Virus record (IMG/VR): IMGVR_UViG_2643221568_000002
Span: 1 to 64,000 of that record
Source: a virus
Taxonomy: Duplodnaviria; Caudoviricetes
DNA: 64,000 nucleotides
Strand: one strand, 5' to 3'
Position numbers and translations under genes: made by a program. Below, one piece after another: positions 18,192-36,100 of this stretch. Within the stretch, counting starts at the first letter, position 1; each line of letters starts with the position of its first letter. The notes beneath the pieces were generated by a model. The model saw only the letters and a program-made list of their open reading frames with translations. It made no database searches and was not told the origin of the DNA.

Positions 18192-18934
18192 CGCGCTCCC
18201 TTGATGAACAGGAAATCCGGAACGCCGTCGTGGCTCGCCTGCGAGAACTGGTGCCTGGCTATCGCATTGTCCACGAGCTGAATGTCGCGGGGCAGGGGTC
18301 TAACCGCATCGACGTCGCCGCGATCGGTACCGAGCATATCGTCGGCGTGGAAATCAAATCGCGCAAGGACGTGCTGAAGCGGCTGGACGAGCAGTGGAAG
18401 GCGTTCAACAGAGTTTGCCATCTCGTAATCGTCGCCGCCCATGAGAAGCACTTCGCTGATTACAGACAAGATGGATGGCGCGCTGATGTGCCGTCGGAGC
18501 GCCACCTCAACCATCCTCTATTCTTCGGGCATCCAAGAGGTCGCAAGAAGGTATGGCATTTTCCACGCCCAGATTACGAGGCAATGGACTACTACCGGCG
18601 TCGCGATGCCGATGATTGGCGCTTTGATCGCTTTAGAGATCTGATGCGCATTCCCCACGCCACAGAGATGCTCGACATGCTTTGGGCCGCGGAGCTTCAG
18701 GCTGAATGCTGGCGGCACCGCGTCTCATGCACGTCACGCTCTACTCGGCCCGACATGATCCGCGCCTTGGCTTGGAACCTTACCGGCAAGGAGGTCACCC
18801 ACGCGGTCTGCCGCCAGCTGCGCCAGCGATCGTTCGCTGAAGCCGATGCCCCAATTTACCCTGACCAGCCTGCGCCGGCACCACAGCCGGCGCAGGAGCC
18901 GCTTTCTCTGCCATTTGAAGGGACGCCAGCATGA
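18188..18934 (+). CDS. PD-(D/E)xK nuclease-like protein (MmcB/sce7726-like)
   Basis: HEL...RIDVAAI...GVEIKSRKD.LKRL..Q. Confidence 0.75.
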   Translation: MTRSLDEQEIRNAVVARLRELVPGYRIVHELNVAGQGSNRIDVAAIGTEHIVGVEIKSRKDVLKRLDEQWKAFNRVCHLVIVAAHEKHFADYRQDGWRADVPSERHLNHPLFFGHPRGRKKVWHFPRPDYEAMDYYRRRDADDWRFDRFRDLMRIPHATEMLDMLWAAELQAECWRHRVSCTSRSTRPDMIRALAWNLTGKEVTHAVCRQLRQRSFAEADAPIYPDQPAPAPQPAQEPLSLPFEGTPA

Positions 18935-19554
18935 GCCGCCGTACCATGCCCTATCACCGCCGATACCACGGCGACGCGCTGCAAGGATATCGCAAGCTCA
19001 CACTGGAGCAGCGTGGCGCGTACACGACGATCCTCGACCTGATCTACGATGAAGGTGGCCCAATCGATCGCAATGAGCGCTGGCTCGCCGGTGAGCTGAA
19101 TTGCTCTCTCCGGAAGGCTAAGGTTCTCCTCGACGAGTTGATCCAGTTGCGCAAAATCTGCGTCACCGTTGGTGGAAAACTGAGCAATCATCGTGCCGAA
19201 AGTGAGATAGAAAATTCGCTGAAAATCTCGCGAAAACGCGCTGAAAACGGATCGAAACGGAAAGATAATTCAAACGATAAACCGAAATCGTCCAATAAAT
19301 TCAATGATCCAGTCAAGCAATTGCTGAACAATTGCGCTGTAATACCAGTACCAGAGCCATATAAGAATAATAATAGCTCTTCGGAGTATGAGGATAGGAG
19401 GGCAAGGAGGGAACAGGTTCTAGCCGTTCCCGATGAGCCTCCACCAATCACAGCATCGCATCGATTGATCAGCAGCCTGGACGGAAGAACCGGATCGGGT
19501 GCAGCCGCAGCTCAAGCCGCTCGTCGAGCGAGGTCGGGAGGGCGTTTGTGGTGA
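18931..19554 (+). CDS. YdaU/DUF1376-family putative replication protein
   Basis: YHRRYHGDAL...LTLEQRGAY..ILDLIY. Confidence 0.8.
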   Translation: MSRRTMPYHRRYHGDALQGYRKLTLEQRGAYTTILDLIYDEGGPIDRNERWLAGELNCSLRKAKVLLDELIQLRKICVTVGGKLSNHRAESEIENSLKISRKRAENGSKRKDNSNDKPKSSNKFNDPVKQLLNNCAVIPVPEPYKNNNSSSEYEDRRARREQVLAVPDEPPPITASHRLISSLDGRTGSGAAAAQAARRARSGGRLW

Positions 19555-20369
19555 GCAAGAAGCCATCGAAGTCGGATGAGGTTTTGTCACCCCTAAAGCG
19601 GAAATCCGGCAATCGTGGAGTGTCGGCAAAGGCTGGTGGCAAGGTTGCAAATCCGAAGGTGCGGAAAGCAGGGGTTGAGAAGGATGCCGAGCCCAAGCCG
19701 GTGAAGTACGACAAGCGGTTCATCGGTCTGGCCAGGACGATGTTCCTCGCCAAGGTCTCCGACGAGGAGATCGCCGGCATCATCGGCATCGACGTCGAGG
19801 AGCTGGAGTGGTGGAAGGAAGAGCACCCCGAGTTCGGCAACGCGTTCCGGCCAGATCCGCGCAATTACGGCGGCAGGCCCACGGTCTGGGAAGATCGCAA
19901 CATCACGATCGCTCAGTCGCTCGCCAGCCTCGGCGCCACGGACCTCGAGATCGCGCAGGCCTTCGAGGTCAGCATCCGCACGATCCACCGTTGGAAGCTG
20001 GACTATCCGGAGTTCCGCGAAGCGCTCGAGCTGGGCAAGGATGCAGCCGACAAGCGTGTCGAGACAAGCCTCTTCCAGCGTGCCACCGGCTATTCGTTCG
20101 ACAGCGAGAAGATCGTCGTCATCGAGGGCGAGGCACAGCGCGTCGAGATCATCGAGCATGTCCCGCCCGACACCAAGGCGGCTATGTGGTGGCTGCAGAA
20201 CCGGAAGCCCGACGCGTGGCGCGCCGTCCAGCACATCAAGCACGATGTCGAGAAGGATAGTCCGCTTGGATCGTTCCTGAAGAAGATAGGCGGCAGCACA
20301 TTCATGCCCGTGGAGGAGGATGCCACCACGCCCAACGCGTTCTCGCCCGTCGAAGAAGATGAGGCGTAA
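19548..20369 (+). CDS. terS: Terminase small subunit
   Basis: GGRPT, tandem HTH, KRVETSLFQRATGY, PPDTKAAMWWLQNR; upstream of TerL. Confidence 0.85.
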   Translation: MVSKKPSKSDEVLSPLKRKSGNRGVSAKAGGKVANPKVRKAGVEKDAEPKPVKYDKRFIGLARTMFLAKVSDEEIAGIIGIDVEELEWWKEEHPEFGNAFRPDPRNYGGRPTVWEDRNITIAQSLASLGATDLEIAQAFEVSIRTIHRWKLDYPEFREALELGKDAADKRVETSLFQRATGYSFDSEKIVVIEGEAQRVEIIEHVPPDTKAAMWWLQNRKPDAWRAVQHIKHDVEKDSPLGSFLKKIGGSTFMPVEEDATTPNAFSPVEEDEA

Positions 20370-21916
20370 TGTACGAGCATCTTGCCGGTCTTACTGAAGA
20401 GCAGTTCCTCGAGAACCTGAAAGACCCGAACTGGCGCATCCGCAACCTCTATTACATCCTCGACAAGTTTCACCAGACCGTCGTGTTCAAGCCGAATGAG
20501 GCTCAGGACAAGTTCTTGAAGCGCATCTGGCACAGGAACATCGTGCCGAAGGCCCGCCAGCGCGGCTTCTCAACCGTCATCCAGCTCCTGATCCTCGACG
20601 CTTGCCTGTTCAATCCAAACCAGCGTGCGGCAATTATTGCCCAGGATCAGTTCACCGCTGGCAAGATCATGCGCAACAAGATCGAGTTTGCGTATGAGCG
20701 GCTGCCAGACTTCATCCGCCGTGACGTGAGCATCGTGACTGACAACGTCGCTGAGAAGATCTTCAGCAACGGTTCGTCAATACAGGTGTCCACGTCTGCG
20801 CGTGGTGACACGCTCAATTGGCTCCACGTCTCAGAGTTCGGCATCATCTGCTTCGAGTCGCCGCAGAAGGCCGAGAAGATCGTAACCGGCGCGCTCGCGG
20901 CAGCCGGGCAGGGCATCACCTTCATCGAAAGCACGGCGAAAGGCAGGGACGGCGCATACTACAAGATGGTCATGGAGGCGAAAGCCAATGCCGATTCCGG
21001 CAAACGCCTGTCTCGCCTCCAATACAGGCTGCACTTCGCGTCGTGGTGGGATGCTGACGAGTATGAGGTTGATCCGACCGGCATCACGATCTCTGCGAAG
21101 GATGAAAAGTATTTCGACGAGCTGGAGCGCGAGATTGGCCGCGAGATATCGCCGCGCAAGCGCGCTTGGTATGTCGCGACCAGGCTGAACGACTATTCCG
21201 ACGAAGACGAAATGATGTGGCAGGAGTACCCATCAACCGTCGAAGAGGCATTCAAGGTTTCCACCGCCGGCGTGATCCTCGCCAAGCAGCTCACCAGAGC
21301 CCGAAGCGACGGGCGCATCACTCGCGTTCCGTGGCGGCCAAACCTCCCGGTCAACACGTTCTGGGACTTGGGCGTGGATGACGATATCGCCATCTGGTTC
21401 CACCAGTCCGTCGGCATGATGGACCACTGGATCAATTACTTCGAATGCAGCAGCGAGCCCTACAGCTACGTCATCGCCGAGATGCAGAAGCACGGTTACG
21501 TGTGGGGGCATCACTTCCTGCCGCACGACGGAGACCAGCGTCGGCCAGGCGCTATCATCATCGAGACGCCGCGGCAGATGCTCGAGGGCCTCGGCCTCAA
21601 GAACGTCCACATCGTTCCCCGAACCACTGACCTGATGGCGATCGGCATGCCCGCGCTGAAGGATGACATGGTCAACTATGTCTTCGACGAGCAGAACTGC
21701 GCCAAGGGCATCCTTCATCTCGATAACTACCGGAAGTCTTGGAACACCAACATGGGCGTGTGGTCCGAGACGCCGGCAAAGAACGGCCACCAGCACGCCG
21801 CCGATGCGCTGCGCCAGAAGGCACAATACCGCGACGAGGTCGCGCGCCTGTGCGGCACTGTTACCGCTTCCTCCTCCTCATCGCGCCGTCGGGCGCGTGA
21901 CCCCATGACCCTCTGA
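20369..21916 (+). CDS. terL: Terminase large subunit
   Basis: KARQRGFST, LHVSEFG, IESTA, WDLG, HAADALR. Confidence 0.95.
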   Translation: MYEHLAGLTEEQFLENLKDPNWRIRNLYYILDKFHQTVVFKPNEAQDKFLKRIWHRNIVPKARQRGFSTVIQLLILDACLFNPNQRAAIIAQDQFTAGKIMRNKIEFAYERLPDFIRRDVSIVTDNVAEKIFSNGSSIQVSTSARGDTLNWLHVSEFGIICFESPQKAEKIVTGALAAAGQGITFIESTAKGRDGAYYKMVMEAKANADSGKRLSRLQYRLHFASWWDADEYEVDPTGITISAKDEKYFDELEREIGREISPRKRAWYVATRLNDYSDEDEMMWQEYPSTVEEAFKVSTAGVILAKQLTRARSDGRITRVPWRPNLPVNTFWDLGVDDDIAIWFHQSVGMMDHWINYFECSSEPYSYVIAEMQKHGYVWGHHFLPHDGDQRRPGAIIIETPRQMLEGLGLKNVHIVPRTTDLMAIGMPALKDDMVNYVFDEQNCAKGILHLDNYRKSWNTNMGVWSETPAKNGHQHAADALRQKAQYRDEVARLCGTVTASSSSSRRRARDPMTL

Positions 21917-21927
21917 AAGGCATCGAC

Positions 21928-22350
21928 ATGGCAGTAGATTTGGACCTCAATAAGCGTCTCTGGACTTTCCGGAAAGACGGCCTTATGGCTATCGGTACTT
22001 GGATACGGATGGATGATCGATTCCGCCCGTGTATGGTTCTTATTCCAGCGGACAGGGAATATGACGACAGGCTGACGCCGTGCGTGGTCACTATGGACCG
22101 AGCATGGATCTGGTCAGAGGAAGTCGGCGACCCTGCCCAAGCCGCACACGCGGCATTCCAGTTCGCAAACACCCTTGGCCTCTCCACAGACCGTCGCACC
22201 GTGATCCGGCTGGCAATGTTCATTGCCGACCACTTGGGCGACCTCCTGTCTATCCCCCCTTACACGCCAGATGATCAGCAGACCGTGGCCGAAGTCACCA
22301 TGCGTGACCCCACCTCCGGGCGCACGATCGAAGCCGAAATAAGGGAATAG
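21928..22350 (+). CDS. Conserved protein between TerL and portal
   Basis: 140-aa ORF at a conserved position. Confidence 0.7.
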   Translation: MAVDLDLNKRLWTFRKDGLMAIGTWIRMDDRFRPCMVLIPADREYDDRLTPCVVTMDRAWIWSEEVGDPAQAAHAAFQFANTLGLSTDRRTVIRLAMFIADHLGDLLSIPPYTPDDQQTVAEVTMRDPTSGRTIEAEIRE

Positions 22351-22351
22351 A

Positions 22352-24571
22352 ATGTTTTCACTCGACGCTGACGATGGATCGGTGCGGAAGAAGCGGTACG
22401 AATCGCCAATCCCGGCAGACACGCCAGCGTCGAAAAGGCCACAGACGGGCAACGCGCTCGACAATGGCAAGAATACCCAGCTGCACAAGCGGCTTCTCGG
22501 CTTCTATACCCGAGAGCTGGACCGCCAGGCTGAAAACCGCCGCGACATGGCGATCGATGCGGACTTCTACGATAACATCCAGTGGACAGAGGAGCAGGCA
22601 GCGGTTCTTCAAGAGCGCGGCCAGTCGCCTCTCGTATTCAACGTCACCGCCACCACCGTCGATTGGGTGATCGGTACCGAAAAGCGCGCGCGCACCGACT
22701 TCAAGGTGCTGCCTCGCCGTAAAGAAGACGGCAAGCCTGCGCAGCGCAAATCCGAGCTGCTGAAGTATTTGGGCGACGTGAACCGCAGTGGGTTCCACGT
22801 CAGCCGTGGATTCGAGGACGCTGCCAAGGTCGGCGTTGGCTGGATGGAGGACGGGTACCAAGGCGATGACGAGGGTGAGCCACTGTTCTCTCGCTACGAA
22901 TCGTGGCGCAACATGCTCTGGGACAGCGCGGCAACTGAGTACGACCTGTCAGACGGTCGTTACGTCATGCGCTCCAAGTGGCTCGATCTCGACGTCGCCC
23001 AAGCAATGTTCCCTAAGCGCAAGTCGCTTTTGACGCGCAGCGTAGACGACGCTGACAATTTCGCGATGATCGACGGCTATGGCGATGAAGCCATGGACGG
23101 CCCAGAATTGGAAAATCAGGGCAGGGGCGATGGCACCTTTATTTCCGACCGAGTGACAGGGTATCAGAGACACCGCGTCAGAGTGATCGAGTGCTGGTTC
23201 AAAATGCCCGTGCAAACCGAAAAGATTTCGGGTGGCACGTTCGCCGGCGACATCTACGACGATATGTCGCCCGGACATCTCTCTGCAATCGAGGAAGGCG
23301 ACGGCGAAATCGTCAAGAAGGCCACGATGCGCATGTATGTTGCGCTGTTCACCACAGCGGGCATGCTCTGGCTTTCGCCGTCTATATACCGCCATAACCG
23401 CTACCCCTTCACGCCGATCTGGAACAAGCGCCGCGATCGCGATGGCATGCCTTACGGCCTGGTGCGCAACATCCGCGACATCCAGAGCGACATCAACAAG
23501 CGCGCATCGAAGGCCCTGCATATCCTCTCGACGAACAAGGTCGTGATGGACAAGGGCGCAGTCGATGACATCGACGAACTTCGGGAAGAGATCGCCCAGC
23601 CCGATGCGATTATCGAGGTGAACGTTGGCAAAAGCTTCAAGTTCGACGTCGATCGAGAACTGAGCCAGTGGCACCTCGAGATGATGTCTCGCGACATCCA
23701 GATGGTGCAGCAGGTCGGCGGTGTGACCGACGAGAACCTTGGGCGCAGCACCAACGCCGTGTCGGGTATCGCCATTCAGGCCCGTCAGGAGCAGGGCGCG
23801 CTTGCAACGGCCAAACTGTTCGATAACCACCGGTTTGCCCAACAGGTGCGCGGCGAGAAGATCCTCGCCAACATCGAGCAGTTCATGTCGGAAGAGAAAC
23901 AGTTCCGCATCACCAACATGCGCGGCAATCCGGAATACGTGACCGTCAACGATGGTCTCCCCGAGAACAACATCGTCCGCACCAAGGCAGACTACATCAT
24001 CGACGAACAGGACTGGCGCGCAACGGTCCGTCAGGCCCAGGTCGCCGAGCTGCTCGACCTCCTCGGCAAGCTTGCGCCGGTCAACCCCCAAATCGCGATC
24101 GTGCTCCTCGATCTGGTCGTCGAGGCGATGGACATCCCGCAGCGCGAGGAAATCGTGAAGCGCATCCGTCAGGTCACGAACATGAAGGACCCTGATGCCG
24201 AAGATCAGCCGCCGACACCGGAAGAGGAGGCACAGGCGCAGGCTACAGCACAGCAACAGAAGCTCGCGCTTGAAACAGCAATGGCGCAGCTGCGCAAGAT
24301 CCAGTCTGAGGCTTCACGCAACGAAGCTCACGCCTCCGACATCAAGGCGAAGACGGTTGCGGCCAACGTTGGCGCGCAGAAGTCGGCGCTCGAGGCAGCC
24401 AGCGCTGTGATCGTTGCGCCAGGCATTGCCGATATCGGCGACGTCATCTTGCACGAATCCGGTTTCGTCTCTCGCTCTGAGGGCGAGAAGGACATGCAGC
24501 AGCAGCAAGCAGCTCAACAACCACCACAACAGCAACAGCAGGACGCCATGGCTATCGGCCTCGGCGCATAA
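22352..24571 (+). CDS. Portal protein (P22-like)
   Basis: DFYDNIQW, PYGLVRNIRDIQSDINKRAS, NAVSGIAIQARQEQG; 739 aa. Confidence 0.92.
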   Translation: MFSLDADDGSVRKKRYESPIPADTPASKRPQTGNALDNGKNTQLHKRLLGFYTRELDRQAENRRDMAIDADFYDNIQWTEEQAAVLQERGQSPLVFNVTATTVDWVIGTEKRARTDFKVLPRRKEDGKPAQRKSELLKYLGDVNRSGFHVSRGFEDAAKVGVGWMEDGYQGDDEGEPLFSRYESWRNMLWDSAATEYDLSDGRYVMRSKWLDLDVAQAMFPKRKSLLTRSVDDADNFAMIDGYGDEAMDGPELENQGRGDGTFISDRVTGYQRHRVRVIECWFKMPVQTEKISGGTFAGDIYDDMSPGHLSAIEEGDGEIVKKATMRMYVALFTTAGMLWLSPSIYRHNRYPFTPIWNKRRDRDGMPYGLVRNIRDIQSDINKRASKALHILSTNKVVMDKGAVDDIDELREEIAQPDAIIEVNVGKSFKFDVDRELSQWHLEMMSRDIQMVQQVGGVTDENLGRSTNAVSGIAIQARQEQGALATAKLFDNHRFAQQVRGEKILANIEQFMSEEKQFRITNMRGNPEYVTVNDGLPENNIVRTKADYIIDEQDWRATVRQAQVAELLDLLGKLAPVNPQIAIVLLDLVVEAMDIPQREEIVKRIRQVTNMKDPDAEDQPPTPEEEAQAQATAQQQKLALETAMAQLRKIQSEASRNEAHASDIKAKTVAANVGAQKSALEAASAVIVAPGIADIGDVILHESGFVSRSEGEKDMQQQQAAQQPPQQQQQDAMAIGLGA

Positions 24572-24582: not shown

Positions 24583-25551
24583 ATGGTTGGCAAACCAAAT
24601 GCCGCAGAACTGGACATGCTTACCGACGAAGAGCGCGAAGGCTTGCTCGACGAAGACACCATCGACGAGGGCCTTGAAGAAGAGGGCGACGGAGACGGAG
24701 ACGGCGAAGGTGATGCCAACACGGATGCTGGGAACGGTACCGACAAGGAGCAGGACAAAGCCGGCGACGGTGATGGTGAAGGCGAAGGCGATGGCGATGG
24801 TGACGATAACACCGACGCCGCCAAGGCCGCAGCAGATGCCGCAGCGGCGGCTGAAGCGGCAGCGGCAGCCGCCGCAGCTGCATCGCAGGATGCCGAGCAG
24901 AAGAACGTAGCACAGGAACCGCAGGAGCGTGCACCCTCTTGGCGCATCGATCCAGCGGTACCGGACAAGATTACAGAGCTGGACAAGCAGCGTGACGAGA
25001 TTGTCGCGAAGTTCGACGACGGCGAAATGACTGGCGCCGAGATGCGGGCCCAGCTGAAGCCAATCGAAACGGAGATCCGGCAGCTCGAGACGAAAGTCAT
25101 GGCGGCCGACATCGCCAAGGCGAACGCGATCGACCAATACCGCGACGTCACCATCCCGAATTTCATGTCTGCGCATACCGAGTATCAGCCTGGGACGATC
25201 TTGCACACGATGCTCGACGCAGAGGTTCGCCGCCTGCAGCAGACCGCCACAAACCCGCTGAGCCCGAAGATCCTCGAGCAGGCGCACACGAATCTCTCGT
25301 CGCAGGTCGAGAAAGCCTACGGCGTGAAGAAGGCGGCTCCTAAACAGGACACGCCGAAACCAAACGCAAGCGGAACAGGTCGTCAGGTGCCGCCGACGCT
25401 GGGCACCGTGCCGGCAGCGGATGCCAATGACGCAGACGACGGCGGCGAGTTCGCCTGGCTGGACCGTCTCGCAAACTCTGATGTCGAGAAATACGAAACC
25501 GAACTCGCGAAACTCTCAGATGAGAAACGCGAGCGATACATGGCTGAATAG
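24583..25551 (+). CDS. Putative scaffolding protein
   Basis: Acidic low-complexity N-terminus, coiled coil, VPPTLG.VPAA; follows portal. Confidence 0.8.
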   Translation: MVGKPNAAELDMLTDEEREGLLDEDTIDEGLEEEGDGDGDGEGDANTDAGNGTDKEQDKAGDGDGEGEGDGDGDDNTDAAKAAADAAAAAEAAAAAAAAASQDAEQKNVAQEPQERAPSWRIDPAVPDKITELDKQRDEIVAKFDDGEMTGAEMRAQLKPIETEIRQLETKVMAADIAKANAIDQYRDVTIPNFMSAHTEYQPGTILHTMLDAEVRRLQQTATNPLSPKILEQAHTNLSSQVEKAYGVKKAAPKQDTPKPNASGTGRQVPPTLGTVPAADANDADDGGEFAWLDRLANSDVEKYETELAKLSDEKRERYMAE

Positions 25552-25559: not shown

Positions 25560-25748
25560 ATGTTGCGACTTGCCGTGAAGCTGGGGGACGCGGTGCGGAT
25601 CGAAGGTTTTGGCCTGATCCACGTCGAAGAGAAGTCGGGGCGCAGCGTGCGCCTCGGCTTCGAAACGGATCAAGGTCCGATCACGATTATCAAGCGGGAA
25701 GACACTGAGGCCGCACTCACGCGGCGTCAGCAGCACATGGTTTACTAG
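25560..25748 (+). CDS. CsrA/RsmA-fold RNA-binding protein homolog
   Basis: AGGAG SD; MLRL..KLGDAVRI...GRSVRLG...IKRED aligns with CsrA MLILTRRVGETLMI...GNQVRIG...HREE. Confidence 0.75.
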   Translation: MLRLAVKLGDAVRIEGFGLIHVEEKSGRSVRLGFETDQGPITIIKREDTEAALTRRQQHMVY

Positions 25749-26041
25749 GGCGCGCCGCTAAGGTGCGCTTTGCACTTTTCCCAAAATTCTTCGCATTTCT
25801 GGGTGGCGATGCGGGCGTTCGCTACCCATCCTGTGTTAGGGAGCGGCGGCGAACCACGGAACGGTTTTGGGTACCATCCAGACCACTGCCATTTGCCTTT
25901 TGTCAGGCCGTGCATTTCCTTCCTGATGCGGCCCAGCGCGGATTCGCCGTCGTAGCCAGTCCAATCATAATCGGTCGGCGGGTCGCTTGCGTCTATCTGC
26001 GTTCGGCGCCACTGGTATTTGGGCTGATACTTGGTCGTCAT
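25745..26041 (-). CDS. Hypothetical Trp-rich protein, convergent
   Basis: 98 aa; stop overlaps csrA-like stop. Confidence 0.65.
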   Translation of the reverse strand: MTTKYQPKYQWRRTQIDASDPPTDYDWTGYDGESALGRIRKEMHGLTKGKWQWSGWYPKPFRGSPPLPNTGWVANARIATQKCEEFWEKCKAHLSGAP

Positions 26042-26121: not shown

Positions 26122-26154
26122 GCGCATGAGTGCCCTCGCAAGGATAACGCGATG
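26122..26154 (+). promoter_or_regulatory. Late-leader switch 1 (tailspike-like operon)
   Basis: GCGCATGAGTGC 26122-26133 before SD AGGA and ATG 26152. Confidence 0.75.
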
Positions 26155-26466
26155 GCTCTCCCCTCTGTTCACATCATTTGCGGCTTTGCAGGCGGCGACG
26201 GCAACCAGCCGACGTCGAAGCAGGCGCTTCTGCGGCTCCCTCAGTGGTCGGAGGAGCCCGCCACCGGCGTGCCGACGACGAACGGCGCAGCTGATAACGG
26301 CGCGATGAAGCCGATCCTCCGCATCACCAACACCGTGGACATCTACCTGAGTGTCGGAAAAGCGCCGAATCCGGCGATAAGCCCGCGTTTCGCACTTCGT
26401 GCGGTCGATGCCCCGCATGACATTTACGTCGAGCCCGGCGACAAGGCGGCTTGGGTGGCCGCGTAA
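26152..26466 (+). CDS. Small putative virion/tail-associated protein
   Basis: 104 aa; coupled (TAATG) to next gene. Confidence 0.7.
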   Translation: MALPSVHIICGFAGGDGNQPTSKQALLRLPQWSEEPATGVPTTNGAADNGAMKPILRITNTVDIYLSVGKAPNPAISPRFALRAVDAPHDIYVEPGDKAAWVAA

Positions 26467-28730
26467 TGGTCGGGCTGCGCCGGGCTCTTGGTCCACTTAC
26501 TCTTCCCAGATCGTTGAGGAACCTTGCAAAGGGTAGGAGCAGGGCCAAACAAGTCGATTTGCCAGTCATCACCGCTGATCTCGTTGTTTACGGCGCGAAC
26601 ATCGGCGGCGAGTTTGGGAGCATCAAATTCGATCGGCTTGCTCAAGCCGCGGCTATGGGCGTCAAGGTCGTAATCATCAACGACATGCCGGTCGATCGTG
26701 CCCATGGCATGATGATGGCGATCCTCAACTTCGATACTGACATAGCGCGCGGCAAAGGTGTCCAGCGCGGCATAGGCAATGAACTTTTTCGGCGACTTGC
26801 AAACCTGTATTTGAGCGGCGGCCTGGCACAAGAAACATTCCTCGCATCATCGAATTATGGTTCTCGGCCCGACTTCATCAAGCCGACGCTTGATGCAATG
26901 ATGGCAGAACACCCGAACATCACCTTCTATCATGATGAGCCACTCGTATCCGTTCAGAAGAGTGGCACACGCATTACCAGCCTCAGAACCGCTAAGCGAG
27001 AATACCGGGCGACCACCTACATCGACAATCACTACTGCCTTGATCTTGCACCAGCAGCTGGGTGCGACACCTTTATTGGCCGCGAGTCGTCGGCTGAGTT
27101 TGGTGAAAGCAACGCGGGCATACGGCCCCCAACCAACGCATTCTCCGTCAACATCAGCCCCTACAACATCCCCGGCAACCCGGCCAGCGGGCTCCTTTAC
27201 GGCATTCGTGACGAGGCATATGGCAATGTCGGCGACGCCTCTCTCGATGTCCAGGCTATGGCCTATAGGCAATGGGATTATGCTGCTGCGAATACCCAAA
27301 GCCCAATGCCAGTCGGTTACGATGCTTCGCGATACACTCTCGCCAAACGCAACATTCTAGCACGTGGGCTCACCTCTTTTGCCCAAGTCGTCACGCTCTA
27401 TGTCGTTCGTCATGGCAACGACGTAAACTCGAATGGCGGCAGTTCTGGCGTTGGACAGGCATTCAATTTCACCGGCCCAGAAATCCGCGAGTACATCACC
27501 GCCACACCAGCACGCCGTAAGGAAATCGAAAAGCTCGTAATGGAGTGGTGGCTTGGCTACCTCTATTTCCTGCGCACGGATACCGACCTGCCATCCGCCA
27601 TTCGCACGGGTGCCGCGGCGGTAAGGGTCATGAACACCTCGATTTGGCCTAACACGCCAGACTATCCAGGGTTCAACCCTAATTTCTATGTGAGGCAGGG
27701 ACGGTTGCTGCGCGGCGACAAAGTTTTAACGCAGCAAGACGTTGTGAACGCTCGACCGGCATGGCCGACACCTGATCCATACGAAGCAATTCAAATTGGA
27801 CGCATTACCTATGCCGGAGACCGCCACTGGTCTCGCACGCTGGTGGTGGACGATGCAACCGCAGTCGACGGCAAGCGTGTGGTAAACGAGGGCGGCATGG
27901 CCATCGCCACTCGGGTGGGAGAACCGATCCCAGCATGGGTCTTGTGGCCCAAGAAGAGCCAGTGTTCCAACCTCCTGAGCACGTTCGGAATCAGCGCGTC
28001 GGCCATAGCGCATGGATCCACCCGCATGGAAGGCCTCTCCATGCACTTCGGTGAAGCTTGTGCGGTCCTGGCTTTTATGCAGATCAAAAACCCGAGCCTG
28101 GACATTCAAGATATTCTCGGCAGTTTCGATGCCAACGGAAACTACATCATCAACGAGGCTCGTGTTGCAGAGTTTCGGAAGCTGCTGGACTTCTGGAACG
28201 TCTACGACACCAATGGGGGCGCTGTCGTTCCTGTCCCGTCAACCTATCCTTCGCCAAATGTGCCGCCGAACGTCAACGGTGGCACAGTCACAAGCACCGG
28301 GACGTGGACGACGCCGTCTGGCGCGCCGCAGTTCACTATCCCGTTCGGCTCTGCCGTTGGGCAGGCGGGGGCAACAAAGCGCTTCCAGCCGAAGCTAGAA
28401 CAGACCGGTGTTTACGAGGTCCGTCTAAGTTGGGCGGTATTCACGGGCAATGCCAGAAACACAGCGACGATAGTCCGCGTGGTTCACGCCGGAGGCACAT
28501 TCTCAACAACAAAGAACCAGAACGCTGGGAGCATCGATACGGGTGATTGGGGCTATGTCGGCCCGCGCCCGACGACAGGAACGGCTGCTGAACGTGACGC
28601 TGGCGAGATTGCCGCGTCTCGCTTCACCTTCAATGCCGGCGATCCGAGCGAACACTACGTCGAGATCGAAGTGCCATCGTCAGGGGGGACAGGAACTATC
28701 GCAGCGGTCAAGTTCATCAAAGTCGCATGA
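26466..28730 (+). CDS. Putative tailspike-like protein: FAD-dependent oxidoreductase-like domain plus golvesin/xanthan-lyase-type C-terminal domain
   Basis: DLVVYGANIGG, GRESSAEFGES.AG, YVRQGRLLRG, ISASAIAHGSTRME, GVYEVRLSW...RN....V.HAGG...NQ. Confidence 0.7.
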   Translation: MVGLRRALGPLTLPRSLRNLAKGRSRAKQVDLPVITADLVVYGANIGGEFGSIKFDRLAQAAAMGVKVVIINDMPVDRAHGMMMAILNFDTDIARGKGVQRGIGNELFRRLANLYLSGGLAQETFLASSNYGSRPDFIKPTLDAMMAEHPNITFYHDEPLVSVQKSGTRITSLRTAKREYRATTYIDNHYCLDLAPAAGCDTFIGRESSAEFGESNAGIRPPTNAFSVNISPYNIPGNPASGLLYGIRDEAYGNVGDASLDVQAMAYRQWDYAAANTQSPMPVGYDASRYTLAKRNILARGLTSFAQVVTLYVVRHGNDVNSNGGSSGVGQAFNFTGPEIREYITATPARRKEIEKLVMEWWLGYLYFLRTDTDLPSAIRTGAAAVRVMNTSIWPNTPDYPGFNPNFYVRQGRLLRGDKVLTQQDVVNARPAWPTPDPYEAIQIGRITYAGDRHWSRTLVVDDATAVDGKRVVNEGGMAIATRVGEPIPAWVLWPKKSQCSNLLSTFGISASAIAHGSTRMEGLSMHFGEACAVLAFMQIKNPSLDIQDILGSFDANGNYIINEARVAEFRKLLDFWNVYDTNGGAVVPVPSTYPSPNVPPNVNGGTVTSTGTWTTPSGAPQFTIPFGSAVGQAGATKRFQPKLEQTGVYEVRLSWAVFTGNARNTATIVRVVHAGGTFSTTKNQNAGSIDTGDWGYVGPRPTTGTAAERDAGEIAASRFTFNAGDPSEHYVEIEVPSSGGTGTIAAVKFIKVA

Positions 28731-28898
28731 ACCTCACTAATCTCACCTAGTTTGCCTCGCTCACCTTGAGACTTGCGGGGTTTACTTTTGCTAACCAGTA
28801 TCGAAATCAGGACGCATAAAGTATTATTTCCGGCCCAATAGACTAGACAGGAACTGACCAATCTAGCAGTGTAGCTCCCGATTATATAGCTGGGGACT

Positions 28899-29942
28899 TT
28901 GTCGGTGGGGGAAACTCAAAAGAAGAGGTTGGATTGGGTGGATGCTGCTAAGGGCATATCCATCCTCCTTGTAGCGCTCTACCACATAGGTCTCTATTTA
29001 GAACATGCGGCGTTCAGCGCACGCACCATCGTGGCCATTAATACGCTTCTTCTTCCAATACGCATGCCGGTATTTTTTGTTGCATCGGGGTTTTTCGCAC
29101 GATCAGCAATCGATAAGGACTGGAGCTTCGTGGTGAAGCATAGGATAGCCTTCTACTTCTATCTTTTCCTTATCTGGTCTGTAATACGATTTGCTTTCTT
29201 TGGAGTTGTCCCTAACCCGCGGAACCTCAGTGAAGGAACCGACATCTTATGGTTGGTCCAATCGTTCTTCAGCCCAAGCACAGGAGCATGGTTTCTATGG
29301 GCATTAGGGTTCTTTTTTCTGATTGCAAAACTGCTGCGCACGATAGACCATCGATATGTTCTTGTCGCGGCCGCTCTTGTGTCCGTTTTGGGTTACTCCG
29401 GGACATTGCATATCCCTTTCACTCATGAGAATTTGTTCAAGTACTTCTTCTTCTTTTATGGCGCATGCTTTTACCGAGAAACGTTTGAACGCATGCAGAA
29501 AAATCCTTCTTTGTTAATAATTTTGGGCGGCTGCTTGTTTGTCGTTCTCAGTCTTTTGGCTTATAAATCGCAGTTGTCTTGGATAGATGGTCCTTCCCTC
29601 TTTCTAGCTGCCGTCGCAGCCGTCTTTGCGGTCTCATCCATTTGCGTCCTCGCACAAGGTACCTCTATAAGCCGAGCTTTCGCTTTCCTTGGCACCCACA
29701 CGCTGCCAATCTATGTCATCCACGTGATGGTCGTGGTGGCGTGCATTAGCATAGCTGTAGCTGTTGAGTGGCCACGTTCAGAGATAGCGACGATAACCCT
29801 CTGCTGTTTAACTCTGTTGATCGCAATAGGCACCCCTCTCATGCTCGAGCGACTGATGAACTTCATCGGAATATCGAGCGTGCTGTTTAGGCTTCCTTCA
29901 AGCCGAAAAATGGCGGCGTCCAGCCAGATGCGCCAAGCGTGA
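28899..29942 (+). CDS. Acyltransferase-3 family (polysaccharide O-acyltransferase) moron
   Basis: RLDWVDAAKGISILLVALYH, RMPVFFVASG, WFL, LGTHTLPIYVIH; multi-TM; AT-rich. Confidence 0.9.
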   Translation: MSVGETQKKRLDWVDAAKGISILLVALYHIGLYLEHAAFSARTIVAINTLLLPIRMPVFFVASGFFARSAIDKDWSFVVKHRIAFYFYLFLIWSVIRFAFFGVVPNPRNLSEGTDILWLVQSFFSPSTGAWFLWALGFFFLIAKLLRTIDHRYVLVAAALVSVLGYSGTLHIPFTHENLFKYFFFFYGACFYRETFERMQKNPSLLIILGGCLFVVLSLLAYKSQLSWIDGPSLFLAAVAAVFAVSSICVLAQGTSISRAFAFLGTHTLPIYVIHVMVVVACISIAVAVEWPRSEIATITLCCLTLLIAIGTPLMLERLMNFIGISSVLFRLPSSRKMAASSQMRQA

Positions 29943-30116
29943 GGTAACTGCTTTTCCTACGTCAAGGCTCGATTCGGTGGCCTTTTTTTATACCCGCCCC
30001 ATGGATCGCTGGTTGGCAACAGATCGGGGGCGCTCGAGCGACCACAAGCGGGCAGAACGGAATGTCACGTCCTTCCATTTCAACGTAACGCAATCTATAA
30101 CCGGAGCATCACGCCC

Positions 30117-30154
30117 GCGCATGAGTGCGGCTTCTCGATAGGAGCCCACGCATG
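30117..30154 (+). promoter_or_regulatory. Late-leader switch 2 (darB)
   Basis: GCGCATGAGTGC 30117-30128; alternative stem covers AGGAG and ATG 30152. Confidence 0.85.
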
Positions 30155-33100
30155 CCAATCGTTATCGGACTCGGCGATGATGCCGAGTGGAAAGACCCGC
30201 TCAACCTTTTCGGCGGCGAAGCACCGGGTCTAGCGCCTTTAACCGGTAATGTAGATCAACAAAAAACAGACCAGAATATGCGCGTTTCTATGCCTGAAGG
30301 CATGTCAGAGCGCGATTGGAACGACACCGTCAACACGGTGATTGCCGAGGCCGCGGGCGAGGGCGATGAGGGAATGGCGGGGGTCGCCCACGTCATTCAG
30401 AACCGTTCGAAGATTCGCGGTCAGTCGATCGGCGATGTCGTCAGAGATCCAGACCAGTTCACAGGCTATTCCAAGCCGGGCCCCAAAGCGCAGGAAGCAA
30501 TGCGCGACCCGCAAATGCGGGCGAGGGCGGAGAACATCGTCCGATCGGTGATGGCGGGAAAAGGAGAGGACCCGACTGGCGGCGCAGATCACTACCACGC
30601 CGACTATGTCAGCCCTTATTGGGCGAGGTCCATGGCCGAGACGAAGCGCATCGGCAATCACCTCTACTACAATTCCAAGGCAGGCAATAAGCCGCTCAGC
30701 TCCGAGACCGCGTTCGTTTCAGAGAATGATGGTTTGGGCCTATTGGGGCCGAAAGGCCAGTTTGGAGACCTGCTGAAAGGTGAACCTTCCGGCCAGACGA
30801 AGCCAAAAGGAAGAGGGCTGGCTGACCTGCTCCCCAAGGATCAGTTCGATGCCGATCCCGACAGCGAGAAGAGTTTTGACACGCTGATTTCGAAGCTTCA
30901 GCCTGGGAAGCCCAAGAGCTACATCACCGATATGCAGCCGCAGCTGCGGAATGGCCTGACAGCCATGTTCGAGAACGCGCCGGATTACGTCAGAGAAGGC
31001 CTTGATCTGCTATCTGGCGCGCGCTCGCCAGAACGGCAGGCACAGATCATCGCCGACCATGCCAACAAGTACGGTTTCGATCGTGAAGCTTGGGTTGCCG
31101 ACGTCGAGAAGCTCGGACCGGTAGAGGCAGGAAAGAAATGGCGCCCGCAGTTCAGAGCGATCGGGCTGACGAGAAACATCGGGATGCCGGGGACGTCCAA
31201 ACACCAGACCGGTGAAGCCGGCGATCTGGGCTGGAAGGGCAAAGCCTTCTCCAGCGCGCCGAGGGAAGTCCGCGAGTGGGTCCACGCGAATGCAGGAAAC
31301 TTCGACCTGCGTTTCCCTATGGCGCACGAGCCTTGGCACATCGAGCACATCAATGCTCGCAGCGGAAAGACCGATGGTTCCGCTGTTCTCGCTACCGCTT
31401 TTGTTGACCAAAAAGGCGACGATGCCGACCGCTCACTCAACTCTACGAATAGCGACCAGAACATGAACCGTACTGCTATCGTCATGGACGAAAATTATAA
31501 AGCTGGCGACGCTTTCGGCCTCTTTTCCGGCGCCACGAACCCGCTTGAGGCAGAGGCGAAGGCGACAGCCCAGGCCCGCACCGATGCTGCAGCAGCCGAG
31601 GCGCAGCGGGTCGAGCAAGAGCGCGTCGCGGCAGAAACAGCAGCCAACAATCAGTCCGTTGATGCCCGCATAGCGGACGGCAAGGGTCGCTATGTGGCGG
31701 TCAATGAGAGCGAGCTACCGGACTGGCAGAAGCAGTGGGACGAAAAGAACCGCTCGTCCGGCATCGTTGGCGATATCGTCCGGCGCTTCGGTATGGGCGC
31801 TGGTAGCACCAGCCAGTCCATCAACAACCTCAATCGGCTTATCGTCTCCAAATTGCCTGGTGGCGACGGGATCAACGAGGCGCTCGATGGGATTGACCGC
31901 TGGTGGGCTGGAAAGACCCAGAACGAGCAGACCCAAGAGAGTATCGATCGGATGTCTGGCAGTCTTTCGCCAGAAGGCGAGGCGGCTCGAGAGAAGAAGT
32001 GGTGGGACGAAGAAAACAAGACGCTCGGACCGGCGTGGAAAGATCCGCGAAGCTATATCGGCACCATTGCTGAAAGCGCCCCTGCGACGATTGCCACTAT
32101 GGCACCTTCGGGCCTGCTCGCTCGAGGCTCCTTTATGGCCGCACGGGCAGCTGGCGCAACGGCAGAGGCCGCAGCAGCGACCGCCGCAAAGACAGCAACG
32201 ATCGCCGGGGGCATCTCAGAAGGTCTTTTGGGCGGTGCAGATGCTGCTCTGTCAGTCAAACAGCGCATTGCTGAAATCCCGCGTGAGCAGCTTGTCGCCT
32301 CAGAGGCAGTAAAGCAGCTCGTCCAGGGCGGATTGTCGGAAGACGACGCCATCAAAGCGCTCAGTGAAGATGCTCAGGTGCAGGCCATGCTCACGGCTGG
32401 TGTCATCACCGGAGCCTTTGGCGGTATGGGTGACCGCGCGCTCGCGAAGATCATCGCAGAAGGCGTAGAAGGGGGTATTGCCCGACGGATTGGCGTCGGT
32501 GCGGCGAAGGGAATGGTTGGCGAAGGCATCTTCGAAGAAGCGCCGCAAAGCGCAGGCCAGACCATCGCCGAAAACGCTGCGGTAGCGCGCGTGAAGCCTG
32601 ATCAGGATCTGACGGAAGGTCTGGGCGAATCCGTGGCGAGCGGCGTTGCAGCTGGTGGCGCGATGGGCGGCGGGATGGGTGCCGTCGGGGGCGTCGCTCG
32701 TCCGGCCGCAAGCAACACAGGCGCATCCCCAGAGGCTGGGCAGGCAGCCCCGGAACCAACAGCGCCAGTCGAGCCAGATGACCGCGGACCTCTTCGTCGA
32801 GCAGCTGATCACGGCCAGCAGCGCCAGGCAGACCGCGGGGCAGCCGCGAATGCTGGTGTCCCGATCGATGGCCGTCCCGGCGTCAAATCCACCGTGCGCG
32901 TCGAAGCTGAAGGCGTTGAGCCTTTCATGGGCACGGTTGAAGGTTACGAGGGCGACGAGGCCGTCGTGGTCGATAGCGGAAGCGGGGAAGTCTATCAGGT
33001 GCCGTTGGCGAATCTGACCGAGATTGCCCCTCCGGTCGCTGACTACCAGTATCCGGAAAAATCCCAAGACGGGATGCCTGAGCACTCGGCAGACCCAGCG

Positions 33101-36100
33101 CTGGAGCCATTGCCGCCCATGTCGGCGGAGGTGACGTCAGAAATGCCGCCACGGTCCGAAGATATCCCCGCGACAGAGAAGCGCCCAACAAGGCCGCAGG
33201 CAGGCCAGCGCGTCATTGTTGATGATCCAGCAGCGGGCCGCTTCTCCGCCCGGATTGAGCGATATGAGAACGGTGGTACCGAGGCCGTCGTCGTCGATGA
33301 CGAAGGCAAGCCTTATCAGGTGCCCCTCGAGTCGATGAAGGTCAACGGCCTGACGCCGGCGCAAGTCGAACAACAGGACCTCGAGCGTGATCCGCCTATC
33401 GAGCGAGAGATCGGCGATGCAGGGCCGAACAGCCGAAAGATCGGCGACAAGACTGTCGTTCTGCCGGATGAGAAGCACGCCGCGCTCTACGACCTTGCCC
33501 GCGAGCAGAACGTAGCCAAGCGCTTCTTTGGCACTTCTCAGCTTGAGATGGATAAGGTTTTTCCAGTAGAGCGTAAGCGGCTTGCGAACGAATTTCGCAT
33601 CAAGGTGTCGGATCTGGCGACATTGGCCGATGACTACCGGTACCGGGCAGAGCGAGCCGCTAAACAGGCGAAATCCAAGCTTCCGGTCAACATGCATGCG
33701 GTGAACGATCGCTTGCTGAAACAGCGCCAATCAGCACTGGCGAAAGAGGCCGGTGAAGCACCGGCACCGACCGCCGATGATGGCGCGGCCTGGTGGGACG
33801 TCGATCTAACCGCACAGGATCGCAAGGGCATTCTTGAGCAAGCGGGCGTCAAGCGCTCTGAGCGACTGACATGGGCGGGCATGACGCCGGGCATCCGGAA
33901 GAAGCTCACCGATGTGCGGGACGCGCAGCGCGCCGCGGCGGAAGACGTTGAAACGCTCGCAGGGCAGGGCGAGAGCGCCACCGAAGCGGCAGCAAACGAA
34001 GCGGCCACTTCGCCTACCAATGACCGTCCGGAGCCCACAGAGGCCCAAAAAGAAGCCGGAAACTATAAGGTCGGGCGTCTGAAGCTGGGCGGCCTCGATG
34101 TCTCGATCGAGAACCCCGCTGGATCTACGCGCAAAGGCATATCCTCGTCTGGCAAGGCGTGGTCCGTCGATATGAAGAGCCACTACGGCTACATCCGCGG
34201 AACTGTTGGTCGCGACAAAGACCACATCGACGTCTTCGTCCGTCCTGGTACCGAAACGCTCGACGATTCCTCGCCGATCTTTGTCGTCGATCAGAAAGAC
34301 CCGGCACGTGGTCGCTTTGACGAACACAAGGTCATGGCCGGTTTCGATAACGAAGCGCAGGCACGCGCCGCATATCTCGAAAACTACACCCCTGACTGGA
34401 AGGGGCTGGCAGACATCACCCAGACCACGCTTGGCGACTTCAAGACGTGGTTGAAGTCTGGCAAAACGTCAGACCCCTTCGCACCGAAATGGTTTGCGTC
34501 GCAGGAGAAGGCGGAGGGCTACGTTGCTAAGAACAAGATGGGCGAGACCCACGAGGTTGTTCAGAGAGGCAAGCGCTTCGAAGTTCTGGAGCGCGCGCGC
34601 ACCACGCCAGCGGTCCGCAGCGGGAAAGGCACGGAGCTTGATCCAAACGCTCATCCTTGGTCCGATGTTTGGGGGAACGATGCCGATGCGGTCTCTGACG
34701 CGCTCAGCAGGATCGCCAGCACCAACGGCGGCGACACGCCAATCTCGGATGCTGTAAAGGCCAACGTCGGCAACAAGGAGCTGCTACAGCTTATCGAGCA
34801 GCGTTGGGGCGAAGGCGGCGCAGGTGGCAATCGCTACATGATCGAGACCCGGAAGGGACCGATCGTCACCATCACCCTCGAGAAGGACGGAGGCAACCAA
34901 CGCATCGTTCTTCGTGGGAAGGAACTGGCAGACGCTATTCGAAAGGAGTTTGCAGTTTCGCTCGAGGATATGCAGAGAGCTGCAAAAGAGCGGGAAAAGC
35001 AGGCAGAGACGCCGCAGGAAAAGGCGCAGGAATCATCCGGGGTCGCGGACGATTTGGGCAAGGTGCGCGGCCTTGATGGTCAGACGTATCAGGCTGCTGG
35101 GCAGTCTCTCCCCAAAAAGGGGTTGGCTCCTGCAAACATCGGCGCCGATGGTGTAGTGTATGTCGGTGCCGTAGGCAGCCAGCATTTCGTAATCGCAGAC
35201 AAGCATCACGAGGCCGCGCCTTTTGACAGGGTAGGATTTGTCACGCCGGAGGGTTTGTTTCTTGATCGGAAGCAGGCCTTCGATTGGGTGAATGAGAACG
35301 AAGCTCCCATTCGCTCTCGCGAAAGCATGCCTGGAGAACTGGACGCGCTCGATTACAGGGACAAATCGCGGCAGAAGACTAGACCAGCGGAAGAAAAGCT
35401 GGAAGAGGCCTCCCCGCCTGCCAGTGGGAACAAGATTTTCACCGAGGACGCCGCGGCCAAGGCTCGCGAGCTTCTACGCAAGAAGCTTGGCGTTCGCGAT
35501 TTCTCTGTTGAGCAACAGAACACCGATACTCCTTTTCACACACCTACCAGCCTTATTTCGGAGATCGAGAGCGACCTGCCGAAAGAGCTTATCCAACGTC
35601 TCACTAATGCTGGTGTCCTTCATGTCGGGGTCGCACGGGACATGGGCCCTGGTATAGGCGAAACTGCATGGGCCACATTAGGAGGCACGATCCACCTCGT
35701 AGCCGACCGGATCAGGCAAGGGGCTGGAACAGCAATCCTCTTGCATGAAGCCTTCCATATCGGCCGGAATGAACTCCACAAAGACCCTTCTTGGAAAACT
35801 CTCTATCCTCGTCTTGAAGCACTCTACGAGAGTGATACCAAGGACAGCTTCTTTAACGATGCGCGCGCACACGTCGAGGGTGTTGAGGCCGCCCGTGGCC
35901 CGTATCCGCCGAAGCGAGGCCAACGGCTCGATGTCGAGGAATTTGGCGCTTATGCCGTTCAATATTATGAGCAGGCACCATCGAGCGTGCGGCGGTGGGT
36001 CGATAACCTCATTGGCGCAATCAAATCGTGGCTACTGAGGAGGTTCGGTCGCCAGATCGGCGATGTCACCCCATCTGAACTGCGAGCCTTCGCAATCGCC

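Follow-up and report, generated by a model that had tools for sequence, protein, structure and literature searches.

A CsrA-like gene and a recurrent leader hairpin as a candidate riboregulatory pair in Bcep22-like podophages

What does a small CsrA-like protein do in a prophage, and does it act on the short motif that heads five operons of the same element? We addressed this question in the first 64 kb (here called the window) of a 76-kb IMG/VR provirus record, IMGVR_UViG_2643221568_000002. The open reading frame (ORF) of interest lies on the plus strand at positions 25560 to 25748 and, by ORF call and translation, starts with an ATG at 25560, ends with a stop codon at 25746 to 25748 and encodes 62 residues. 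The prophage belongs to the Bcep22-like podophages and, among them, to the Atu_ph08/PBC5 type; its nucleotide identities to these two phages are 74% and 73% over the stretch from terS to the scaffold gene. An earlier reading of the same DNA, hereafter the original prediction, had proposed that the protein is a CsrA homolog that activates translation from the five leaders, as a translational equivalent of lambda Q. Our analysis suggests that the motif is an RNA hairpin, that the CsrA-like protein is most likely its reader and, more tentatively, that binding would open the ribosome site of the late operons.

The 62-residue protein and its family

By its sequence, ORF 25560-25748 is a genuine gene encoding a divergent CsrA homolog. 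An AGGAG box lies 6 nucleotides before its ATG, and only 8 nucleotides separate it from the stop codon of the preceding 322-codon scaffold-like gene. Taken alone, the protein matched the Pfam family PF02599 with an E value of 0.0078 and 16.6 bits (gathering score, 27), over residues 1 to 38 only, and the PHROG 8397 family "CsrA-like regulator" with an E value of 0.0021. The NCBIfam CsrA models TIGR00202, NF002469, and NF001844 gave about 13 bits with cut-offs of 70 to 106 (13.3 versus 106 for NF001844). A phmmer search of the PDB returned HU and PDR16 only, and we rejected both as chance local matches. The ESM-Atlas neighbours of the protein were viral CsrA clusters (score of 0.87, template-modelling [TM] score of 0.60 to 0.67), which we treat as a lead only, the predicted local distance difference test (pLDDT) value of the Atlas model being 0.52.

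Although the resemblance of the single sequence is weak, the homology to CsrA/RsmE is solid at the level of family profiles. An exhaustive HMMER search with close relatives of the protein retrieved only 36 representative proteins at an E value of ≤1e-3. The family alignment, A4, comprised 32 short representatives and 4 close homologs (36 sequences). Its profile matched RsmE (2jpp) with an E value of 4.7e-12 and CsrA (1y00) with an E value of 2.3e-9, over profile positions 1 to 46/51, as well as the CsrA proteins of E. coli, Yersinia, Pseudomonas, Bacillus, and Geobacillus at 1e-9 to 1e-6. Furthermore, 32 of the 36 aligned members matched PF02599 at an E value of ≤0.01. The similarity to CsrA stated in the original prediction is thus upheld. 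A profile of the close clade matched RsmE over residues 1 to 36 only (E value of 0.021).

Within A4, G9 is the only invariant residue, and M1, L2, G27, and L32 are nearly invariant. The 62-residue protein retains L2 and L4 of the N-terminal ML.L...G motif and carries a valine in place of R6. The available part of a CsrA review names L4 and R44 as critical residues. It had been proposed that the arginine of IKRED corresponds to that of HREE in CsrA. This assignment proved insecure, since the column equivalent to R44 depends on the alignment and falls on K45/R46 or on I43, MAFFT and HMMER placing K45/R46 differently.

The gene is not peculiar to this prophage and is already annotated in relatives. 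Homologs follow the scaffold-position gene in Atu_ph08 (gp17, 71% identity), PBC5 (gp26, 57%), Bcep22 (gp54, 28%), and Itty13 (gp22, 28%), the last two being annotated "CsrA-like regulator." This synteny, together with the family-profile similarity, places the protein among the PHROG 8397 regulators of Bcep22-like phages. As a query for related loci, A4 was too diverged, and alignment A1 took its place. With the portal protein, we then recovered 80 related IMG/VR loci. The CsrA-like gene was found in 61 of the 80 loci by ORF search and in 4 more by stop-to-stop frames. The other 15 end 0 to 1177 nucleotides past the portal gene, where about 1.2 kb is needed to hold the scaffold-like and CsrA-like genes. 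All 65 loci long enough to show the gene therefore carry it, at the same position after the scaffold-like gene, indicating a core gene of the head module rather than a moron. A scan with P0023 recovered no viral locus. Overall, the CsrA-like gene belongs to the core head module of the Bcep22-like podophages (this prophage, Atu_ph08, PBC5, Lessievirus, and Ittyvirus) and is placed elsewhere in Hollowayvirus.

The leader hairpin and its linkage to the gene

The window has exactly five copies of the pattern GCGCATGAG[T/C]GC (Table 1), as the original prediction had described for C-AUGA-G leader hairpins. The rest of the 76-kb record holds no further copy, and the reversed pattern, used as a control, gave 0 matches. 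Matches with one or two mismatches were at background (32 found versus 30.2 expected), so that the exact copies are far beyond chance. Each of the five lies between genes and has the same orientation as the gene that follows it. They lie 8 to 19 nucleotides 3' of -10-like boxes and 18 to 29 nucleotides 5' of an ATG preceded by a GGAG-type box, the Shine-Dalgarno (SD) boxes of the window (GGAG, AGGAG, or AAGGAU) lying 6 to 16 nucleotides past the hairpin. The operons concerned encode capsid and tail, other virion proteins, a DarB-like giant protein, endolysin, and accessory functions, in good agreement with the proposal that the leaders precede capsid, tail, and lysis genes. An Rfam scan of the window placed no family on the leaders; only a tRNA was matched, and no sponge RNA was found.

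The motif can fold as a 4-bp hairpin, GCGC-AUGA-GUGC, of -3.2 kcal/mol. Its 12-mer is identical in 19 of 19 copies from 12 close relatives in spite of differing flanks; Atu_ph08 has four copies, and PBC5 has three exact copies and two variants. The 12-mer of leader 2 is likewise invariant in the orthologous leaders of 12 relatives. A wider comparison of 32 distinct capsid leaders yielded 27 distinct hairpins, one leader (L125) having none. The core pairs C-G, G.U, C-G, and G-C are standard in 27, 27, 26, and 26 of the 27 hairpins, respectively, and a fifth pair is standard in 16, with five pair types. In one locus (L121), a compensatory change preserves the hairpin as GGAGC-AUGA-GUUCC. The loops read ATGA (8 hairpins), ATGAC (5), AAGAC (4), AGGAC (2), and AGGA (2), while AGGAT, AAGAT, AAGA, ACGAC, ATGAT, and ATGGAC were found once each. 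The conserved element thus appears to be a hairpin of 12 to 14 nucleotides, GCGC-ANGA(N)-GUGC. RNAalifold, run on nine capsid leaders, recovered the small hairpin only (-1.35 kcal/mol); MAFFT misaligned the unequal loops, and anchored scripts were used instead. Enrichment of 11-mers in Bcep22 and Itty13 was drowned by GC-rich coding words, and a loose scan for GCGC-N4-5-GYGC was too noisy to be of use.

The shape of this element recalls known ligands of CsrA. The consensus obtained by in vitro selection (SELEX), as given in the available part of the CsrA review, is RUACARGGAUGU; its loop contains GGA, no more than four pairs are contiguous, and a GU is conserved. Of the 27 hairpins, 26 have a U following the closing G, and Bcep22 and L075 come close to such ligands with C-AGGAU-GU and C-AUGGAC-GU, respectively. 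The conserved letters C-A-N-G-A-(N)-G-U on a short stem thus resemble CsrA SELEX ligands, as far as sequence can tell. Visual inspection of protein and loop variation gave no clear rule.

The 12-mer might instead be a double-stranded DNA site, such as an operator, a stoperator, or a late-promoter element bound by the GcrA-like factor or a repressor, its pairing as RNA being incidental. All its bases are invariant among the 19 close copies, it lies just 3' of -10-like boxes in a single orientation, and the prophage encodes a GcrA-like transcription factor, GcrA being noted for Atu_ph08 too in the available part of its paper. However, the loop varies from 4 to 6 nucleotides between fixed arms, which a dimer site in duplex DNA would not tolerate, and a retained G.U makes the inverted repeat imperfect in 26 of the 27 hairpins. 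The distance to the -10 box is not constant either (8 to 19 nucleotides), the ribosome-binding site (RBS) region covaries with the element (see below), and no copy lies in the immunity region (12.6 to 14.5 kb) even at ≤2 mismatches. The element is also kept in Burkholderia and Pseudomonas phages, and the annotated Bcep22 and Itty13 products that were viewed include no GcrA-like protein, a GcrA-profile search not having been made. Variable loop length, conserved G.U, and fixed orientation together argue for RNA, and we consider a DNA site highly improbable.

Other candidate explanations were rejected. The GTG of the motif as the true start codon is in frame in three window genes but out of frame in PBC5. 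A leader peptide starting at the AUG of the motif was dismissed because many loops lack AUG and the short frames are unconserved. Control through GcrA and GANTC was set aside, no GANTC being seen in the promoter regions on visual inspection only.

Some copies and neighbouring words stand apart. In PBC5, an exact 12-mer at 961 to 972 holds the annotated integrase start codon (coding sequence from 965), and in Atu_ph08, a copy with one mismatch at 47009 to 47020 (minus strand) seems to include a start codon; the hairpin loop would hide the AUG in both. Bcep22 carries, between 21000 and 62550 (L035 to L038), a GGTGCG word beside -10-like boxes before gp67, gp69, terL, and the holin gene, perhaps a promoter signal in its own right in this phage.

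If protein and hairpin are partners, they should be found together. The association of the conserved hairpin with the CsrA-like gene in three phage lineages, which is reported here from genome comparison, fits the co-occurrence suggested in the original prediction. In the order that appears ancestral, the hairpin lies within about 100 nucleotides 3' of the CsrA-like gene. In Bcep22 and Itty13, whose order is not rearranged, the capsid gene directly follows the CsrA-like gene, which makes it the putative ancestral target. Itty13 has the hairpin before its capsid gene, its endolysin gene, and gp67.

The second lineage is Hollowayvirus phiC725A, whose capsid protein is 24.7% identical and whose family member, gp43 (E value of 2.8e-9), occupies another place in the structural module. 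Here, GCGCAGGAGTGC lies inside the 3' end of the gp43 gene, 27 nucleotides before the next gene, and a second hairpin copy carries in its loop the SD of the gene after next. Relatives of phiC725A (proteins 55 to 65% identical) have GCGCATGAGTGC or GCGCACGAGCGC at the same place. In the Hollowayvirus-like loci L138 and L157 to L161, the hairpin is part of the 3'-terminal coding sequence of the CsrA-like gene, and its letters thereby dictate a conserved ...ARMSA... peptide in the tail of the protein. The third lineage (L136 and L137) has GGGCGC-AGGAA-GUGCCC between the CsrA-like gene and the capsid gene. We also examined four distant capsid relatives. The gene is missing from three of them (Stx2 II, Vibrio D79, and Paracoccus KLEP18-1), and so is the hairpin; in Stx2 II and Vibrio D79, 23 to 24 nucleotides lead from the scaffold gene to the capsid gene start.

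This linkage bears on the possibility that protein and hairpin are not partners at all. The protein could act on host mRNAs, as a moron or takeover function, or be a minor virion or assembly component, and the leader could serve RNase III processing, a host factor, or the 140-residue phrog_10057 product, or act as a 5' stabilizer. The available part of the JC1 paper calls the homolog a moron of unknown role and lists one of its peptides in virions, and Campa et al., in the part available, list phage RsmA homologs and propose that they manipulate host defence. In addition, the 62-residue protein lies below the curated CsrA cut-offs and has no secure R44, and the same module contains another conserved gene of unknown function, which encodes the phrog_10057 product. 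Nevertheless, a moron would not be expected to hold a fixed position in all 65 assessable loci, the gene has the hairpin beside it in two different genome positions (Bcep22 type and Hollowayvirus), and the hairpin bears hallmarks of CsrA ligands. Moreover, hosts such as Burkholderia and S. meliloti have no csrA of their own, according to the partly available sources. We therefore regard separate roles for the two as somewhat unlikely. The evidence for the protein as reader of the hairpin is circumstantial and comes from several directions.

The helix over the ribosome site and the sign of regulation

In the predicted fold of the free leader, the hairpin loop and the 3' arm pair with the stretch from SD to AUG. 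Such a fold is predicted for four of the five window leaders, whose energies range from -19.7 to -22.3 kcal/mol and z scores from -1.8 to -2.4. The minimum-free-energy helix of leader 2 joins the motif to SD and AUG (-22.3 kcal/mol, z = -1.81), and in leader 4, CAUGAGUG is paired with CACUCAUG, start codon included (-19.7 kcal/mol, z = -1.84). Leaders 3 and 5 reach -19.7 (z = -2.36) and -19.8 kcal/mol (z = -1.96), respectively. When the motif was masked or the small hairpin was enforced, the computed cost of opening positions -13 to +4 fell from 8.2 to 13.4 kcal/mol to 4.2 to 7.7 kcal/mol. For leaders 1 to 5, the values in kcal/mol were 8.2 to 5.4-6.1 (motif occupied), 11.8 to 6.1-7.7, 12.7 to 4.2, 13.4 to 6.1-6.2, and 13.3 to 4.5-6.2. 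Masking of the motif lowered the cost by 2.1 to 8.5 kcal/mol.

The same architecture was seen across relatives. Among 29 distinct capsid leaders, the mean fold z score was -2.74, with 23 below -1.64, and at least 8 of 15 RBS nucleotides were paired with the hairpin region in 20. Duplexes between the 5' element and the RBS averaged -16.2 kcal/mol for cognate and -11.8 kcal/mol for non-cognate combinations (n = 29), and 0 of 10000 permutations were as low, a result that overstates the number of independent events because the leaders are related by descent. The pairing partners change together from phage to phage: the 5' arm GGAUGUGC faces GCACAUCC at the RBS in Bcep22, GGACGUGC faces GCACGUUC in L107, and AGGAGUGC faces GCACUCCU in L108. 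By these predictions, the hairpin serves as the 5' arm of a helix that covaries and in which SD and AUG are buried, and such an architecture predicts activation once the hairpin is bound.

We therefore propose, as a plausible but still tentative reading, that a CsrA-family RNA-binding protein reads the leader hairpin and opens the ribosome site, thereby activating translation. As long as the leader is free, the SD-to-AUG stretch would be paired with the hairpin's loop and 3' arm, and the site would be closed. The CsrA-like protein would capture the nascent 5' hairpin and hold the arm off the ribosome site, so that translation could start; extra protection of the 5' end, as for CsrA at flhDC, is possible. 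Judging from the -10-like boxes, from which alone transcript 5' ends were deduced, the hairpin would lie close to the capsid mRNA's 5' end in every phage of the group. The activating sign is suggested by analogy, the available part of the CsrA review reporting that, at ymdA, CsrA activates expression because it opens a hairpin in which the SD is sequestered and that, at flhDC, it protects the 5' end. Produced together with portal and scaffold, the activator would next permit synthesis of the coat, tail, DarB-like, and lysis proteins.

The same protein-RNA pair could also repress. A dimer might bridge the hairpin and a GGA at the SD, or stabilize the closed helix as RsmA does at psl, and so repress or feedback-limit capsid, tail, and lysis translation, for instance to set scaffold:coat ratios or delay lysis. 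Repression is the commonest mode of CsrA, and a high-affinity hairpin with an SD site 10 to 63 nucleotides away is its classic layout, according to the partly available literature. The short spacing of 6 to 16 nucleotides between hairpin and SD box in the window, the hairpin loop of phiC725A that holds an SD, and a second CAUGAGG-like box at the SD of Bcep22 and Pseudomonas-type leaders would all suit such an arrangement. However, free leaders already bury SD and AUG (opening costs of 8 to 13 kcal/mol, mean z score of -2.74), so that a repressor seems superfluous for the most-needed virion protein, and no sponge RNA was found in the window with Rfam, which matched only a tRNA. We judge repression to be unlikely.

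Several observations weigh against activation through this pair, in addition to the virion peptide mentioned above. No A4 column at K45/R46 conserves a basic residue, and the R44 equivalent is unconserved. On the RNA side, GGA is present in only 6 of the 27 loops, the window loop being AUGA, and the near invariance of the 4-bp core stem leaves the covariation of the small hairpin thin (one compensatory case and one G.U-to-G-C change). Leader 1 has a nonsignificant fold z score of -0.6, and the common descent of the leaders qualifies the permutation result. In 9 of the 29 capsid leaders (8 of Pseudomonas type and L094), few of the 15 RBS nucleotides (0 to 4) have a partner in the hairpin region. 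The Pseudomonas-type leaders have a longer hairpin (7 to 8 pairs) that coexists with a helix between the 5' flank and the RBS, so that simple competition is insufficient there. Finally, Bcep22 has the hairpin at its capsid leader only, L162 carries the CsrA-like gene with a capsid leader without hairpin, and, since every member of the core group has gene as well as hairpin, co-occurrence there has no internal negatives.

A broader proposal, which we hold to be doubtful, is that a phage CsrA-family protein and its own hairpin form a self-contained riboregulatory module by which these phages switch on their late functions. Transcription of the capsid, tail, DarB-like, and lysis operons would start at host sigma-70-type promoters and yield mRNAs whose ribosome sites are shut by the leader helix from the outset. 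Only after the CsrA-like protein, produced along with portal and scaffold, had captured the 5' hairpin would an mRNA be translated and thereby escape the polarity caused by non-translation. The loop would have drifted from GGA to NGA by lineage, giving an orthogonal CsrA code.

Genomic setting and known systems

The CsrA-like gene closes a rightward chain that runs from the GapR-like gene through terminase and portal to the scaffold-position gene (Table 1), as described in the original prediction. The scaffold-position gene lies between the portal and CsrA-like genes in every relative examined. The chain stops at the CsrA-like ORF, whose stop codon is overlapped by a convergent gene, and no terminator lies between the two. 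The structural module is inverted and about 30 kb away from the CsrA-like gene; in Atu_ph08 and PBC5, too, it is elsewhere and inverted.

Table 1. Positions of the leaders and of the genes around the CsrA-like ORF in the 64-kb window
Feature	Coordinates	Strand	Details
GapR-like	14972-15367	+	Pfam/PHROG
GcrA-like	15364-15981	+	Pfam/PHROG
D12 adenine methyltransferase	15978-16853	+	Pfam/PHROG
3'-Phosphoadenosine-5'-phosphosulfate (PAPS)-reductase-like	16850-17629	+	Pfam/PHROG
DUF1376	18931-19554	+	Pfam/PHROG
terS	19548-20369	+	Pfam/PHROG
terL	20369-21916	+	Pfam/PHROG
140-residue phrog_10057 gene	21928-22350	+	PHROG
P22-type portal	22352-24571	+	Pfam/PHROG
Scaffold-position gene (phrog_8246)	24583-25551	+	PHROG E value 3.5e-79; same operon, directly 5' of CsrA-like gene
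CsrA-like ORF	25560-25748	+	62 residues
Convergent gene phrog_12188	25745-26041	-	PHROG E value 7e-39; overlaps stop of CsrA-like ORF
Leader 1	26122-26154	+	Hairpin 26122-26133, SD AAGGAU, ATG 26152; accessory operon
Leader 2	30117-30154	+	Hairpin 30117-30128, SD AGGAG, ATG 30152; DarB-like giant ORF
Leader 3	47978-48016	-	Hairpin 48016-48005 (GCGCATGAGCGC), ATG 47980; virion proteins phrog_8003 and phrog_9667
Major capsid protein gene	54695-55792	-	phrog_334, E value 4.9e-134
Leader 4	55790-55833	-	Hairpin 55833-55822, SD GGAG, ATG 55792; major capsid protein, head and tail operon
Leader 5	55905-55942	+	Hairpin 55905-55916, SD GGAG, ATG 55940; endolysin, phrog_7

The GapR-like, GcrA-like, and D12 methyltransferase genes are consecutive in the early operon (14972 to 16853), where Atu_ph08 and PBC5 have a C5-cytosine methylase. 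The accessory operon behind leader 1 (26152 to 29942) comprises a 104-codon ORF, a 759-residue protein resembling flavin adenine dinucleotide (FAD)-dependent oxidoreductases with a Golvesin_C-like end, and an acyltransferase_3, and the GC content drops to 0.487 at 29001 to 30000. Leader 2 precedes a single ORF of about 5092 codons (30152 to 45430, plus strand), the counterpart of the giants annotated as "DarB-like antirestriction" in the relatives Atu_ph08, PBC5, and Bcep22. ORF 53727-54098 (minus strand) contains at 53749 to 53874 a 9-bp tandem repeat of about 13 copies, read as (GTE)x3 and then as a long (RHR)n; this switch looks like a 1-nucleotide slip inside the repeat, either an assembly error or real phase variation. 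A tRNA-Ser(tga) gene (59170 to 59259, minus strand) directly adjoins a tyrosine-type integrase and is thus likely to be the prophage attachment site. Integrases lie at 57691 to 59013 and 59337 to 60491 (both minus strand), the second just past the tRNA, which suggests that two elements share this tRNA. A search of the rest of the window for att repeats of ≥16 nucleotides from the tRNA-Ser region found none.

In the published work, Sobrero and Valverde catalogued phage CsrA homologs, as far as the available part of their paper shows. The only functional test we found concerns PTXU04, an unrelated phage and genomic singleton, in which knock-down of the homolog gave small plaques according to the available part of that report. 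The words CsrA, motif, and hairpin, looked up in the Atu_ph08 paper, do not occur there (0 occurrences). Neither the hairpin nor RBS-locking leaders nor the mechanism was found described in the literature searched, which did not include the Bcep22 genome paper (Gill 2011) or supplements. The present analysis offers a concrete, testable cis-target and mechanism for phage CsrA homologs: the target would be a conserved hairpin, one half of the helix that locks the RBS before the capsid gene and, in this prophage, before all late operons. If true, this would be a translational late-gene switch in temperate podophages, a CsrA-family example with activation as the main mode, and a natural orthogonal protein-RNA pair for hosts without CsrA, useful in synthetic control.

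Compared with CsrA/RsmA/RsmE (PF02599), the protein is similar in its length of about 60 residues, its ML.L...G motif, and its profile homology over beta1 to beta5, and the candidate ligand is, as in SELEX ligands, a short hairpin of the form C-A...GA...G-U. It differs in scoring below every curated CsrA/RsmA cut-off of Pfam PF02599 and NCBIfam, in the replacement of R6 by V, in the uncertain R44 equivalent, and in its mostly NGA rather than GGA loops. Furthermore, no sponge RNA or FliW partner was seen here, and the gene is phage encoded in hosts that, by the partly available sources, lack csrA. The PHROG 8397 regulators Bcep22 gp54, Itty13 gp22, and JC1 gp47 share the place after the scaffold-position gene and the phage group, whereas here five operons begin with the hairpin (one to three in Bcep22 and Itty13), and the structural module is inverted. 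E. coli ymdA and flhDC, as described in the partly available review, share an SD-sequestering leader helix and binding near the inferred mRNA 5' end. However, they are host genes with GGA sites under a global regulator, while here regulator and targets are both phage borne and predicted from sequence.

In phage Mu (Com-mom) and lambda (N and Q), a small phage protein licenses late functions through a leader hairpin (Com and N) or at the late-transcript start (Q). Com is a zinc finger protein, and N and Q act on RNA polymerase. The CsrA-like protein is homologous to none of them, and no terminator follows the window hairpins. Consistent with the original prediction, no Q family was found with Pfam and PHROG among the 30 window proteins scanned; nor is there a terminator between hairpin and start codon. 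To call the protein a translational equivalent of lambda Q is overstated, because its gene is cotranscribed with terminase, portal, and scaffold genes, which are themselves late functions. Finally, these phage proteins show weak similarity to FlbT, an alpha-proteobacterial regulator of flagellin translation that works on a 5' leader (NCBIfam E values of 0.0099 for Bcep22 gp54 and 0.056 for Itty13 gp22; ESM-Atlas TM score of 0.52). The scores are nevertheless far under the cut-offs, and the CsrA-like phage proteins are not members of the FlbT family.

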